Virus record (IMG/VR): IMGVR_UViG_3300020450_000008
DNA length: 64,000 nucleotides
Source: a virus
Lineage: Duplodnaviria > Caudoviricetes
Direction: 5' to 3' (one strand)
Position 1 is the first letter of the stretch. Each line of letters opens with the position of its first letter. Below the pieces are notes generated by a model, which worked only from the letters and a program-made list of their open reading frames with translations, made no database searches and had not been told where the DNA came from. Of the stretch, positions 23,079 through 64,000 are shown piece by piece. The translations under genes and the position numbers were made by a program.

Positions 23079-25610
23079 ATGAAATCTTTTTATACTTCCG
23101 TAAATCGCTATGGCAATTCTATACTTTATCGTGGTTACAACGAAAATGGAGCTGCCATAGCTCAAAGATATAAATTTTCACCTACACTCTATACACCATC
23201 AAAGAAACCTACCAAGTTTAAAGGCTTTGATAGTGGATATGTTGCACCATTAAGTTTTCCAACTATGAGGGATGCTAAAGAATGGCTGGAACAATATCAA
23301 GAGATGGAAGGTGTAAATATATTTGGCACAAAAAATTATATACATCAGTTTATTACAGAAAAATTTCCTGATAAAATAGACTTTGAGCCAAATGCTATCA
23401 ATGTTGTTAACTTCGATATAGAAGTTGCATCTGATTCTGGATTTCCAGTTCCGGAACAAGCGGCATATCCAATCACAGCAATCACAGTTAAATCAAGTCA
23501 ATCTTCAGTATATCAAGTCTGGGGTTGTGGCGAATACAGCTCAGAAAAATGTGAAATAGAACTATATGGAAATCTGATTCAATATCACAAGTGTAAGAAT
23601 GAAACAGAATTACTTGCTAAGTTTCTTGGTTATTGGATAAAAAATTATCCTGATGTTATAACAGGTTGGAATACTCGATTCTTTGATATTCCATACATTG
23701 TAAATCGTATAAAAAATGTTGGTGGTGAAGCAGCTGCTAATAGATTATCTCCTTGGAAATTAGTAAGTGAAAGAAACCTAATGATTGGCGGCCGTATGAA
23801 TTATGGCTATGACATAACTGGCATTCAACAAGCAGACTATTTAGAATTATTTAGAAAGTTTGGATATTCATATGGTCCACAAGAATCATATCGTCTTGAT
23901 CATATCGGTCATGTTGTACTTGGTGAACGCAAACTTTCTTTTGAAGAACATGGTAGCTTATTAAATCTGTATAAAAATGATCATCAAAAATTTATTGATT
24001 ATAATATTAAAGATGTTCAATTAGTAGATCGAATCGATCAGAAGATGGGACTTATTAATCTAGTATTTACTATGGCTTATAGAGCTGGTGTTAATGTTAC
24101 AGATACATTTGGCACTACAGCAATATGGGAATCAATCATTTATCGTAGATTACAGAAAAATAATATCATAAGCCCTATTGATCAAATTAAAAAAGTCATT
24201 TATCAAAATAAATCAAATGCAAATGTTATTGAAGGTGGCTATGTTAAGGAACCTCAAGTTGGTGCACATGACTGGGTGGTATCATTTGATCTAAACTCTC
24301 TATATCCAAACATAATAGTTCAGTCTAATATATCACCCGAAACTTTAATTAAAGATAAATCATTCGGTCATTACGAACAAGATGTCCAACACTATCTTAA
24401 CAGTAAAGATAAAACGTCAAAAGAATATTCTATATGTGCAAGTGGTGTTCCTTTCTCTCATGAAAAACAAGGTATCATACCAGAGTTAATTGTTGAATAT
24501 TATGCAGAACGTACACAAATTAAAAAGAAAATGTTAGAAGCTAAATCTGCATATGAAAAAGAAAAGTCTCGCCAACTTGAAGCAGAAATTAATCAACTTG
24601 AAAATAATCAAATGGCCATCAAGATCTTATTGAACTCTCTTTATGGCGCATTGGCCAATAAGTACTTTAAGTATTTTGATAATGCTCTTGCCGAAAGTGT
24701 TACACTTACTGGTCAGCTTTCGATTAAATGGGCAGAAAAAGCTATCAATCAAGAGATGAATAAAGTTCTTAAGACTGGTAATAAAGACTATGTTATAGCA
24801 ATCGATACCGATTCTTTATACATTAACTTTGGTCCACTTGTGCAAAAGCTAAATCCAAAAGATCCAGTTGCGGCTATTGATAAACTATGCCAAACACATT
24901 TTGAAAAGAAACTTGCTGAGGCTTATGATAAACTATTTAATAACTTAAATGGTTATACACCTAGAATGGAAATGGGTAGGGAGGTTATTGCTGATCGTGG
25001 AATCTGGACAGCTAAGAAAAGATATATTCTTAACGTACATAACTCAGAAGGCGTACAATATGCTGAACCTAAACTTAAGATTATGGGTATTGAAGCTATC
25101 AAATCTTCTACACCAGAAGTTGTTCGTAATAAATTTAAAGAGGCATTCAAGATTATAGTGTCAGGTGATGAGTTAAAAACTCGTCAGTTTATTAATGATT
25201 TTAAAGAAGAGTTTAAACTACTTTCTCCAGAGATGGTATCATTTCCAAGAAGTGTACAAAATGTCGGTAAGTGGAAAGATAGAATACACATTTATTCTAA
25301 AGGTACTCCAATTCATGTTCGTGGCGCGCTTTTATATAATCATCATGTATCAGATCTTTTCCTCGATAAAAAATATTCTCAAATCAGCTCAGGCGATAAG
25401 ATAAAATTTTCTTATCTCAGATTACCAAATCCTATCAAAGAAAATGTTATATCGTTTCCTGACTTCTTACCACAAGAATTCAAGCTTCATAAATATATCG
25501 ATTATGATACTCAATTTGATAAAACATTTATCGAGCCACTCAATCCAATACTTGAAGCGGTTGGGTGGTCAGTAAAAGAACAAGCAACCTTAGAGGAGTT
25601 TTTTGGATGA
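23079..25610 (+). CDS. gp43: Family B DNA polymerase
   Basis: Exo FDIEV, GWN..FFD, YNIKD; pol SFDLNSLYP, KILLNSLYG, AIDTDS; C-terminal TLEEFFG. No intron or intein visible. Confidence 0.98.
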   Translation: MKSFYTSVNRYGNSILYRGYNENGAAIAQRYKFSPTLYTPSKKPTKFKGFDSGYVAPLSFPTMRDAKEWLEQYQEMEGVNIFGTKNYIHQFITEKFPDKIDFEPNAINVVNFDIEVASDSGFPVPEQAAYPITAITVKSSQSSVYQVWGCGEYSSEKCEIELYGNLIQYHKCKNETELLAKFLGYWIKNYPDVITGWNTRFFDIPYIVNRIKNVGGEAAANRLSPWKLVSERNLMIGGRMNYGYDITGIQQADYLELFRKFGYSYGPQESYRLDHIGHVVLGERKLSFEEHGSLLNLYKNDHQKFIDYNIKDVQLVDRIDQKMGLINLVFTMAYRAGVNVTDTFGTTAIWESIIYRRLQKNNIISPIDQIKKVIYQNKSNANVIEGGYVKEPQVGAHDWVVSFDLNSLYPNIIVQSNISPETLIKDKSFGHYEQDVQHYLNSKDKTSKEYSICASGVPFSHEKQGIIPELIVEYYAERTQIKKKMLEAKSAYEKEKSRQLEAEINQLENNQMAIKILLNSLYGALANKYFKYFDNALAESVTLTGQLSIKWAEKAINQEMNKVLKTGNKDYVIAIDTDSLYINFGPLVQKLNPKDPVAAIDKLCQTHFEKKLAEAYDKLFNNLNGYTPRMEMGREVIADRGIWTAKKRYILNVHNSEGVQYAEPKLKIMGIEAIKSSTPEVVRNKFKEAFKIIVSGDELKTRQFINDFKEEFKLLSPEMVSFPRSVQNVGKWKDRIHIYSKGTPIHVRGALLYNHHVSDLFLDKKYSQISSGDKIKFSYLRLPNPIKENVISFPDFLPQEFKLHKYIDYDTQFDKTFIEPLNPILEAVGWSVKEQATLEEFFG

Positions 25611-60025: not shown

Positions 60026-60227
60026 AACCCTAGAATAAGGAAATAAAATTGATAAATGAACTTATATGCATAGTCGGAATTGCTGCAACTAGCTTTTTAA
60101 CAGGTTATTTGATAGCTGATTTACAAAGTTTTAGAAGGTACATTAAAGAAAATTGCTTGAAGTAGCAGTCAAAGCATCCTTTTTAATAAATAATTCTTAT
60201 GACAAGAACAATACTAAAAGGAGTAAC

Positions 60228-61543: not shown

Positions 61544-61567
61544 ACTATTATAAGGAAAGGAAATAAA

Positions 61568-61654
61568 ATGTTTACACCAGATACAATAGCAATAACAATA
61601 ATGTTAATAGCGCTTTTCATAACAGTAAAGGTGGTCTTCGGACCATACTTATAA
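61568..61654 (+). CDS. 28-aa single-TM peptide
   Basis: MFTPDTIAITIMLIALFITVKVVFGPYL; strong RBS, coupled to next ORF. Confidence 0.45.
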   Translation: MFTPDTIAITIMLIALFITVKVVFGPYL

Positions 61655-62018: not shown

Positions 62019-62140
62019 GTGATATAGGCTGGTTAGTTGTGATGTATATTATAGGCGTACTATATATTTTGTCACCTTGGATAGCTGTTACATATATGTT
62101 ACAGTCTGATAAAAAAAGTGAAAAAAGTGAAAAAAAGTAA
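62015..62140 (+). CDS. Small membrane peptide (41 aa; not in ORF track)
   Basis: MSDIGWLVVMYIIGVLYILSPWIAVTYMLQSDKKSEKSEKK. Confidence 0.4.
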   Translation: MSDIGWLVVMYIIGVLYILSPWIAVTYMLQSDKKSEKSEKK

Positions 62141-62149
62141 AAATAAACG

Positions 62150-62178
62150 TTTACATTCATGTGTTTTTATGGTAGATT
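62150..62178 (+). promoter_or_regulatory. Early promoter TTTACA-N17-TAGATT
   Basis: Variant motif with TGG extended -10 and upstream A-tracts. Confidence 0.55.
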
Positions 62179-62210
62179 AATAGTATAAGGTAAATAAAAA
62201 AGGAAGATAA

Positions 62211-62522
62211 ATGTCAAACGAATCAATATTTTTAGAAGCAGATAATGGCGGAATCGCTATATACGAAGGCGCTGGTAACAGGGTCGATTGGGCGAAAGAC
62301 GTTCTTGCTCTTTCAGTTGTCATCGAAAATTGGGATCTTCTAGATAGACCTAATGTTTTCTTCACTAGCTCAATGGATTTTGCTAGTGAGAATGGTTTCA
62401 AAAGAGACCAAGACGCTAGAATTCTTTTTGGCGAAGCTTCAACAATCGTTCTTCAAAGAGAAGCCGATGAAGAAAGACTAAGAAGAAAAATGAATAGAGC
62501 AATTATTGATGGAGTTATATAA
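62211..62522 (+). CDS. Hypothetical early protein
   Basis: 103 aa; AAGGA RBS. Confidence 0.6.
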   Translation: MSNESIFLEADNGGIAIYEGAGNRVDWAKDVLALSVVIENWDLLDRPNVFFTSSMDFASENGFKRDQDARILFGEASTIVLQREADEERLRRKMNRAIIDGVI

Positions 62523-62824
62523 TGAGAAAAGATTTAGCAGATATGGTAGTAACTATCTCTCAAATGACAGATAGATCAGACTTAAAAGTTTTGAATGACG
62601 CGCTTTTTAGACAGTTCAAATACTTACAGCAGCTTGAAGCTAAAAAGGCTAAAATCAAATTTAGAGTTGGTATGCCTGTTTCTTTCCACTCAAAGGTAAG
62701 TGGTAAGTTCCCACATGTCGGTAAGATCAAAAAGATCAATCGAACAAAAGCTATTGTTGCTATTCCTGGCGAATTTGATTGGAATGTACCACTAGAAAAA
62801 CTAAAGTTAGAAGGAGCTGCTTAA
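62522..62824 (+). CDS. Hypothetical early protein, SH3/KOW-like C-terminus
   Basis: FRVGMPVSF...GKIKKINRTKAIV...WNVP. Confidence 0.55.
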   Translation: MRKDLADMVVTISQMTDRSDLKVLNDALFRQFKYLQQLEAKKAKIKFRVGMPVSFHSKVSGKFPHVGKIKKINRTKAIVAIPGEFDWNVPLEKLKLEGAA

Positions 62825-62979
62825 TGCAAGTACTTTATGAAGTACATTATGAAGACATCTCTGGCTGGAAATACCAGTTTATAAAGCTTACTGTAAAGCA
62901 AGCTGCAGAGATCGCGACGAGATTAGAAAAAGATGCAAGAACCGTAAACGTACGGGTTATTCAGGAGGAGTACGTATAA
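62824..62979 (+). CDS. Small hypothetical protein
   Basis: MQVLYEVHYED...; TAATG coupling. Confidence 0.5.
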   Translation: MQVLYEVHYEDISGWKYQFIKLTVKQAAEIATRLEKDARTVNVRVIQEEYV

Positions 62980-63218
62980 TGAAATGTAGATATAAATTTA
63001 AATTTCCTGTAGACGAATTTGGTCGTCCAGGTGGAATGTACAGTTTAGCTGATTTACCAGTTGTTGGTTATAAAATACTTGAAAGAGTTGGTACACTTAA
63101 GAAGCGTGATACTGCAAAAGAACTTTATGAGCTTCAAGATATTGAGAAAAACTGGACTCTTGTAGTACCATTTGAAGATGTAGAGATTATAACGTCTCCA
63201 CTAACGGAGGTTATATAA
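62979..63218 (+). CDS. Hypothetical protein
   Basis: 79-aa coupled ORF. Confidence 0.55.
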   Translation: MKCRYKFKFPVDEFGRPGGMYSLADLPVVGYKILERVGTLKKRDTAKELYELQDIEKNWTLVVPFEDVEIITSPLTEVI

Positions 63219-63559
63219 TGGGATTTGCTTTTGATGATGAAAGACACTCAAACTACTTAGGTAGGTTTGATAGAACTAATCAATCCGATATGATGGAGCT
63301 AAACATCGCTAAAAAGATGGTTAGACATTTTAATAAAGATCAAAGAAATAATAAATCTTTTGATAGAAGTGGTAGTCCTATCAAGACAACTCCATACAAA
63401 TGGAGAATCGAATACAGAGGTCGTGAAGTCTTCAAGAAGATGGTTGTTCCAGGATTTAGCAAAGGACCTGTTAAATTTGGTCCTTGGGGCAACATTGCTG
63501 GTGGTATGAAGAATGCCAAAGTTGTAGATGCCTACATTTACAGAAGATACGAATACTAG
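63218..63559 (+). CDS. Hypothetical protein
   Basis: 113-aa coupled ORF. Confidence 0.55.
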   Translation: MGFAFDDERHSNYLGRFDRTNQSDMMELNIAKKMVRHFNKDQRNNKSFDRSGSPIKTTPYKWRIEYRGREVFKKMVVPGFSKGPVKFGPWGNIAGGMKNAKVVDAYIYRRYEY

Positions 63560-63561
63560 AA

Positions 63562-63601
63562 TTTCTCGGTATCTTCCTTTTATTTCCTTATAACCGAGAA
63601 A
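63562..63601 (+). other. Hairpin with 22-nt pyrimidine-rich anti-leader loop
   Basis: Stem tttctcggt/accgagaaa; loop atcttccttttatttccttata. Confidence 0.6.
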
Positions 63602-63603
63602 GG

Positions 63604-63630
63604 AAAGGGCCCCACGTGGGCCCTTTTTGT
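63604..63630 (+). terminator. Rho-independent terminator
   Basis: aaagggccc-cacgt-gggccc followed by T5. Confidence 0.85.
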
Positions 63631-63639
63631 TTTAAACTA

Positions 63640-63647
63640 TATAAATA
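63640..63647 (+). promoter_or_regulatory. T4-type late promoter TATAAATA
   Basis: Exact consensus upstream of the last ORF. Confidence 0.7.
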
Positions 63648-63678
63648 GAAAGAGTTACATTTACAGAAAGAAATAGAT

Positions 63679-64000
63679 ATGGCTATCATGGCTCCCAAAA
63701 ATTTTAGAGGATCTGCACTTGATCCGGTTTTTATTAAAAGAGCAAGAATTCAAACATCTTTCAATGTTGAAGATGCTGATTTAACAAGTCTTAAATTTAA
63801 AAAAGAGATGCAGTTTCTTTATGATTTTCAGTTTTTTCCAGGCTGGTTTGAAAAGAATACACTATTAACTGGAAACAACGTGAATATAAATGCTTTCAAT
63901 AGATTAGCTACTAAATTAAAGACTGCTAATCCTAGTGGTTATAAAAATCTTGTTCAGTTTACAGGACAGTACTTAGGACCTGGTGAAGTCCTACTTTATG
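63679..64000 (+). CDS. Hypothetical protein, 3' truncated by window edge
   Basis: MAIMAPKNFRGSALDPVFIKR...GQYLGPGEVLLY open to the end of the window. Confidence 0.55.
   Translation, partial: MAIMAPKNFRGSALDPVFIKRARIQTSFNVEDADLTSLKFKKEMQFLYDFQFFPGWFEKNTLLTGNNVNINAFNRLATKLKTANPSGYKNLVQFTGQYLGPGEVLLY

Follow-up and report, generated by a model that had tools for sequence, protein, structure and literature searches.

In the hok mRNA of plasmid R1, the fbi element at the 3' end of the full-length message pairs with the extreme 5' end and keeps the mRNA translationally inert; the message is activated by 3' trimming. In the icaR mRNA of Staphylococcus aureus, a UCCCCUG motif in the 3' UTR pairs with the message's own Shine-Dalgarno (SD) sequence, by which initiation is blocked and a duplex for RNase III is formed (PMC3868564). 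In the hbs mRNA of Bacillus subtilis, a 14-bp pairing that joins the 5' and 3' UTRs modulates cleavage by RNase Y (PMC5737220). Gill et al. have shown in a 2025 preprint that pyrimidine-rich anti-SD-like words located hundreds of bases away base-pair with the ribosome-binding site of bacterial mRNAs, which inhibits initiation and favors decay, and that such words are depleted in genes (PMC12697547).

Phages P1 and P7 produce the c4 antisense RNA, whose loop sequences are complementary to a ribosome-binding region of the same operon (2025 phage sRNA review, PMC12197685). T4-like phages carry PeSLs, composite terminator/promoter cassettes that are repeated and include an early promoter; no anti-leader loop is described for them (PMC4122927, PMC2839356). 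The early shut-off of T4-type phages is currently ascribed to RegA, RegB, the autoregulation of gp32 and gp43, and local hairpins at ribosome-binding sites, and the T4 post-transcriptional review makes no mention of "long-range" pairing. Our literature search found no description of a 5'-3' UTR interaction in a phage.

Here, we analyzed a hairpin at the end of an early operon of an uncultured marine T4-like phage. The window, that is, the whole stretch of DNA analyzed, has 64,000 nt and a GC content of 33%, and it is nearly all transcribed on the + strand. Its DUF932 protein is 55% identical to the counterpart in the Methylophilales phage Melnitz; a DNA-level search found no close phage record for the window, cultured relatives included.

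Genomic Setting of the Operon

The promoters of the window are T4-like, with early promoters of the form TTTACA-17-TATAAT and late promoters of the form TATAAATA. The features of the operon and of the sites compared with it are listed in Table 1.

Table 1. Features of the early operon, its terminal hairpin and the compared sites. Positions are those of the window unless a relative is named.
Feature	Position	Strand	Sequence or remark
Exact 14-mer	60035..60048	+	ATAAGGAAATAAAA; ribosome-binding site of a 38-aa TTG ORF; secondary match, chance level
Leader of the upstream early operon	61549..61568	+	Partly complementary to the loop, -13.1 kcal/mol; chance level
Sigma70-type early promoter, predicted	62150..62178	+	TTTACA 62150-62155, 17-nt spacer, TAGATT 62173-62178
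5' leader of the operon, target of the loop	62184..62208	+	TATAAGGTAAATAAAAAAGGAAGAT; SD AAGGAAG, ATG at 62211
Five small early genes (103/100/51/79/113 aa)	62211..63559	+	No assigned function
Hairpin, 5' arm	63562..63570	+	TTTCTCGGT; begins 2 nt past the TAG stop at 63557-63559
Hairpin loop, 22 nt	63571..63592	+	ATCTTCCTTTTATTTCCTTATA; G-free, two UUCCUU motifs
Hairpin, 3' arm	63593..63601	+	ACCGAGAAA; pairs with the 5' arm in a 9-bp stem
Intrinsic terminator	63604..63633	+	AAAGGGCCC-CACGT-GGGCCCTTT and T-run; 9-bp GC-rich stem, 5-nt variable loop
Late promoter motif, T4-type	63640..63647	+	TATAAATA; serves the next gene, ATG at 63679
Second hairpin type	L034:3128-3277		Loop AAAYYUUUUUUUCUCCUC; also in L011, L027, L028, L031, L035-L038, L040, L047-L050

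All four gene junctions of the operon are 1-nt TAATG overlaps. Pfam and PHROG searches with the five proteins matched no family, the Atlas gave no useful lead to their function, and the last gene had no match in the phage collection. The hexamers of the early promoter are kept among relatives and its spacer is variable; at the usual spacing from the -10 element, the predicted transcription start is at about A62185. No terminator-like site was found between 61569 and 63560. From the promoter at 62150, the TAATG-joined genes and the terminator at 63604-63633, we infer the ends of the transcript, a predicted message of about 1.45 kb (62185-63634). Transcripts that come from the early operon upstream are probably terminated at 63633 as well.

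Directly 5' of the early promoter lie three tandem GTGAAAAAA(A) units (62112-62139), which are kept in relatives and which also encode the end, KKSEKSEKK, of the small protein of the gene before. The units may be an A-tract UP-like element. Elsewhere in the window, at the gene starts 15058, 23079, 32552 and 49921, a TATAAT -10 element ends 4-6 nt 5' of the ATG and no SD is present. Judged from this arrangement, these early genes (that at 23079 encodes 843 aa) look as if they are translated from leaderless or near-leaderless mRNAs.

The Terminal Hairpin and Its Terminator

A preliminary description of this DNA had reported a 9-bp stem presenting a 22-nt loop, followed by a strong terminator, and all three are present in the sequence. 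The minimum free energy (MFE) structure of 63550-63640 consists of exactly the hairpin and the terminator (-27.5 kcal/mol, z = -3.56, none of 200 shuffles as good); the first hairpin by itself contributes -9.4 kcal/mol. The window contains 374 hairpins whose stem has at least 7 bp and whose loop measures 10-32 nt, and only in this one is the loop G-free and pyrimidine-rich. A search of Rfam gave nothing at or above the gathering threshold, the best hit being osmY RNA on the opposite strand (23.8 versus 46.9 bits).

Three other readings of the element were considered and rejected. A pseudoknot between UUUCCUU of the loop and AAGGAAA just 3' of the stem fails on geometry, as nothing would link its two halves across the 9-bp stem, and the MFE structure retains the hairpin. 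On the minus strand, the leader-like sequence is not followed by a start codon, and the stem changes seen in relatives would be C.A mismatches. As for a dispersed repeat or mobile cassette, the exact 19-mer of the loop is confined to the clade of this phage. Both the window and IMG/VR showed the element to be single-copy, and the stem/terminator pattern, searched with a free loop, was found in the same clade only, other matches (L022, L044-L046) being due to chance.

Complementarity between the Loop and the Operon Leader

We compared the loop with the window by alignment and by duplex energy, and the leader of its own operon was the best site by both measures. All 22 positions of the loop's reverse complement match in an alignment with 62184-62208 that has one gap of 1 nt and one of 2 nt (Smith-Waterman score, SW, 34), as the preliminary description had it when it called the two matching apart from 3 extra nucleotides. 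The runner-up scores were 28 (60035), 25, 25 and 24 (61541). The similarity ends exactly at the loop edges, and the flanks are unlike. Complementarity begins at the predicted +1 (62184/62185); with a start at about A62185, the loop therefore complements essentially the whole predicted 5' UTR.

Purine-rich leaders could resemble the complement of such a loop by chance, a doubt that was raised when the match was first described. For the own leader, the match is beyond chance: of 300 dinucleotide-shuffled windows, one had a + strand site that scored at least 34, and only 1 of 94 natural leader 22-mers had a second copy scoring at least 34. The match of the loop to the operon's own leader is real.

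Duplex energies were calculated for 96 ribosome-binding/start regions (TIRs). The duplex of the loop with its own TIR (-20.9 kcal/mol) is the best of about 12,800 windows, the mean over the 96 TIRs being -7.8 kcal/mol (sd 3.6) and the second best -14.8 kcal/mol. Shuffled loops reached -20.7 kcal/mol on the own leader in 0 of 400 cases; in 6 of 400 they did so on at least one of the 96 TIRs. Through G.U pairs, two G-rich sites inside genes come near the energy of the own leader (-20.1 and -19.8 kcal/mol).

Other Early Leaders and Action in trans

The loop had also been proposed to be aimed at several early-gene leaders, on the strength of the 14-mer at 60035-60048 and of two pieces in the leader at 61549-61568. 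These matches exist as sequence (the two pieces overlap), but they are within chance, a score of at least 28 being reached in 41 of 300 dinucleotide-shuffled windows. Their duplexes (-14.8 and -13.1 kcal/mol at 60035 and 61549) equal the mean best-of-96 value of shuffled loops (-15.1 kcal/mol). The nine predicted early leaders in the window are heterogeneous, and one only is matched beyond chance. The wider aim of the loop is thus not supported: besides the parent mRNA, no trans target within the 64 kb is above chance.

These results bear on the idea that the hairpin and the terminator make up a stable 3'-UTR-derived sRNA of about 70 nt, which would act in trans on early leaders (62211, 60049, 61569 and others) as a class-wide shut-off. 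The operon's terminator would be shared by such an RNA, the loop would be its conserved "seed", and the four best-scoring sense-strand matches to the loop complement are all found within 3.5 kb upstream. At the base of the stem there is also a GA|AUU, which may resemble the loose RNase E consensus. However, the own leader alone stands above chance, and the remaining TIRs give -14.8 kcal/mol or weaker, as with shuffled loops; the nine early leaders differ among themselves, and four early genes look leaderless. A conserved internal promoter is also missing; the last gene contains a TTTACA, which is unconserved and comes with no -10 element. We consider this sRNA unlikely. The preliminary description had left a choice between a 3'-UTR-derived sRNA and a 5'-3' end pairing that occludes the SD; what is supported is the complementarity to the own leader, which is specific, conserved and clade-matched and makes such a pairing the best reading; a separate sRNA of about 70 nt, for which no internal promoter is present, is not supported.

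Behind the textbook ribosome-binding site ATAAGGAAATAAAA lies a hydrophobic ORF of 38 aa with a TTG start (60049-60165). From its sequence, it is likely to be an unannotated small membrane protein.

Conservation within the Clade of the Window

The element is kept in twenty-odd metagenomic contigs, which amount to 10 distinct sequences with 83-94% nucleotide identity. Conservation in related phages had been proposed as a check on the element, and the outcome is favorable: among the 10 distinct relatives, 1 of the 22 loop positions is variable (a C to U that still pairs with G), as against 54% of the third codon positions of the last gene, where 13% of the first and second positions vary. The loop and the T-run of the terminator vary freely among relatives. 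In eight relatives, the leader is invariant except for one inserted A.

The stems have undergone five one-sided changes, all of which give G.U pairs in the + sense; one pair is broken, and there are zero double compensatory changes. The A-to-G changes in the 3' arm lead to U.G wobble pairs in the + sense only. Taken as a pattern of substitution, the stem changes point to the + strand RNA as the form that is probably under selection.

The intergenic module comprises 93 nt with 15 variable positions, 1 among the 22 of the loop and 14 among the other 71, a difference that is not significant. Since the whole 93-nt module is well conserved, the loop does not stand out significantly from the sequence around it. 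Base-by-base compensatory change was not found within the window's clade, where such co-variation is impossible because loop and leader are both nearly invariant. The loop is supported as a specific and conserved antisense image of the leader and SD of its own operon.

The homology with most relatives stops at 63649, beyond which at least three different late genes follow (L001-L032). By its composition, the stretch 63604-63649, with the terminator and TATAAATA, would be a PeSL-like module boundary built on a late promoter, and the intergenic module may also be kept as a recombination junction. In one relative, an inserted hydrophobic ORF of 33 codons (L032:802-903) separates the last operon gene from the hairpin. 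This ORF stops at the module's own TAG, so the hairpin stays 2 nt behind a stop codon.

Relatives with Another Hairpin and Leader

The hairpin of the window is absent in L011, L027, L028, L031, L034-L041 and L047-L050, where the homologue of the last gene is 48-87% identical and is followed by a DUF3310 gene. A second hairpin type is found 12-35 nt past the DUF3310 stop. It has a 19-nt G-free loop, AAA(C/U)(C/U)UUUUUUUCUCCUC, and stems of 7+8 bp, 10-12 bp or 16 bp depending on the lineage, which are rich in G.U pairs in the + sense and show one C-G to U-A exchange (fold z-scores of -3 to -6.6). About 65 nt downstream there is a GC-rich terminator-like hairpin.

The L033, L034 and L028 lineages have a promoter block homologous to that of the window. 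In the loci with the second hairpin type, it comes with the GTGAAAAAAAG upstream block seen in the window, and the leaders behind it are different. The leader is ...AAAACGAGGAGAAAAAAUG in L034, L038 and others, and UAUAAGGUUAAAAAUGAGGAGAAAAAAUG in the mosaic L028. L033 has a fourth leader type (a variant with AAUUAAGGAG; leader ...AAAAAAUUAAGGAGAAAAACAUG), and its contig ends before the 3' end of the operon; a search for another contig of this lineage gave none.

For each locus, the best target of the second-type loop was the leader behind the homologous promoter (L034, -17.3 kcal/mol; L038, -18.3 kcal/mol; L028, -18.7 kcal/mol), and the leader of L028 is the best site of the whole locus for its loop. 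Of 1000 shuffled loops, none reached the L034 value on the L034 leader, and 25 reached it on at least one of 16 TIRs. Non-cognate combinations gave -9.4 kcal/mol for the window loop on the L034 leader, -12.3 kcal/mol for the window loop on the L028 leader, and -9.5 and -7.4 kcal/mol for L034-type loops on the window leader. What the second clade shares is just a 12-13-nt stretch, which covers the ribosome-binding site. Loop and leader differ together across clades, a co-variation that rests on two loop types and three leader types.

The second-type loop is also antisense to a conserved purine-rich coding sequence (..HAPEEKKRFK..) in the C-terminal part of a convergent gene, and this coding sequence alone may keep the loop free of G. 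Two amino-acid differences of the convergent gene (His/Cys and Met/Ala) coincide with differences in the stem, as if the protein sequence might yield to the RNA stem on the opposite strand.

The early promoter-leader cassette TGTACA-17-TAGGAT-GGTAYCA...GGAGAAAAAATG occurs twice in L034 (422-481 and 1574-1633), and likewise in L037, L048 and L049. Its copies lie on the same strand, about 1.15-1.3 kb apart, as a PeSL-like repeated promoter.

The complementarity could be a relic, for example an inverted promoter-leader fragment left by recombination, and the hairpin a generic 3' stabilizer or termination helper that is conserved in a young recombining junction. The locus does have the marks of exchange: homology ends just past the late promoter, the downstream genes differ, and in L032 a gene has been inserted before the module. 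Terminator/promoter cassettes of the PeSL type are known as mediators of shuffling among T4-like phages (PMC4122927), and the conservation of the loop does not significantly exceed that of the remaining module. A relic, however, would have to account for a match that spans exactly the loop with flanks unlike those of the leader, for the fixation of 21 of 22 loop positions beside a terminator loop and T-run that vary, and for other clades, in which this operon end bears another hairpin whose loop is cognate; nor is the single-copy element a dispersed cassette. This explanation seems improbable to us.

It is very unlikely that the two sites, the same 22 bases inverted at the transcription start and at the operon end, act as double-stranded DNA (for one factor, as an operator pair or a roadblock), or that the loop, pyrimidine-rich single strands being common protein-binding sites, binds an RNA-binding protein such as S1 or Hfq independently of the leader, because the 1-nt and 2-nt gaps are bulges to an RNA helix but a register shift to a DNA site, the stem substitutions preserve pairing only in the + strand RNA, the second clade has in common only the 12-13 nt over the ribosome-binding site, and the cognate and non-cognate energies are as RNA pairing predicts.

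Proposed Pairing of the Two Ends of the Message

The complementarity is specific and conserved, and loop and leader are matched by clade; therefore, the best reading is a 5'-3' RNA pairing of the loop with its own leader that masks the SD and the predicted 5' end, to which we give a probability of roughly 0.58.

In the predicted fold of the mRNA 62185-63634, the leader-loop pairing has a probability of 0.44-1.0 per base, above 0.8 for most bases, and in the local fold the 5' half of the leader is unpaired. The half-duplex that covers the SD has 11 bp and -13.3 kcal/mol; the 16S anti-SD gives -6.2 kcal/mol on the same leader. Because it has 11 bp only, this half-duplex is feasible with the stem closed. 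Pairing of the closed 22-nt loop over its full length requires the stem to open, which counts against it. We also found that anti-SD-like words are about 2.5-fold rarer on the sense strand of this phage, and that both TTCCTT words of the operon mRNA lie within the loop.

The 5'-3' pairing may work as follows. The hairpin would form the untranslated 3' end of the early transcription unit that runs from the promoter near 62150. Its single-stranded 22-nt loop would pair with the leader of the first cistron, most simply within the same RNA once the 3' end has been made, and would cover the SD and, as predicted, the 5' UTR in its entirety, the first transcribed base included. Fewer ribosomes would load on the first gene, and the output of the whole operon would probably fall too because the five genes are joined by TAATG overlaps. 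The pairing may also provide RNase III with a long duplex or change the decay that depends on the 5' end. The message would then be translated mainly while nascent and would silence itself once complete. We infer that the pairing takes place in vivo; it would act in cis rather than in trans, and its effect may be repression rather than stabilization. The term "feedback", which had been used for the shut-off, is dropped because the pairing needs no product of the operon.

Tentatively, and at somewhat less than even odds, this may extend to a class: the early operons of these marine T4-like phages would be self-limiting, the completed 3' hairpin of each closing its own leader through lineage-orthogonal pairs (two here), as a general, undescribed RNA-only means of dosing or shutting off early genes in lytic phages.

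Comparison with Known Systems

Among 3'-UTR sRNAs, the CpxQ/SroC type shares the intrinsic terminator of its mRNA and has a conserved seed, and both traits are found here. Unlike that type, the present element showed no trans target above chance beyond the parent mRNA within the 64 kb. Unlike hok, it has a strong terminator hairpin 3' of it, and no toxin-antitoxin context was seen.

The c4 antisense RNA of temperate phages is produced by processing, stands alone and controls an antirepressor, and it has no sequence or Rfam relation to this hairpin. The likeness to PeSLs lies in a conserved stem-loop and promoter module at a junction where relatives exchange neighboring genes. However, the module here is single-copy, its promoter is the late TATAAATA, and it has an extra hairpin 5' of the terminator, so that it falls outside the PeSLs as they are defined.

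The anti-SD-like words studied by Gill et al. (PMC12697547) are depleted from the sense strand of this phage as well. Theirs were synthetic 8-mers in B. subtilis, whereas here a natural, conserved and structured element of 22 nt is retained and not avoided. With the hbs mRNA, the locus has in common a long-range pairing of both UTRs of one mRNA, which is predicted here; in hbs, the pairing protects the leader from cleavage and stabilizes rather than represses.

The icaR mRNA is similar in that its 3' UTR, too, holds an anti-SD motif of pyrimidines that complements the SD region of the same message. In contrast to icaR, the phage message is a five-gene operon of about 1.45 kb, known here from its sequence, and the motif is placed in a hairpin loop beside the terminator. 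Its complementarity covers 22 nt and the whole predicted 5' UTR, against a 7-nt motif in icaR. The two natural, mutually non-cognate leader/loop pairs could be orthogonal parts for synthetic control of translation. If the proposed pairing is true, it would represent an RNA-only, intramolecular layer of control with lineage-specific cognate pairs, and the first phage case of 5'-3' UTR communication of the icaR/hbs kind.
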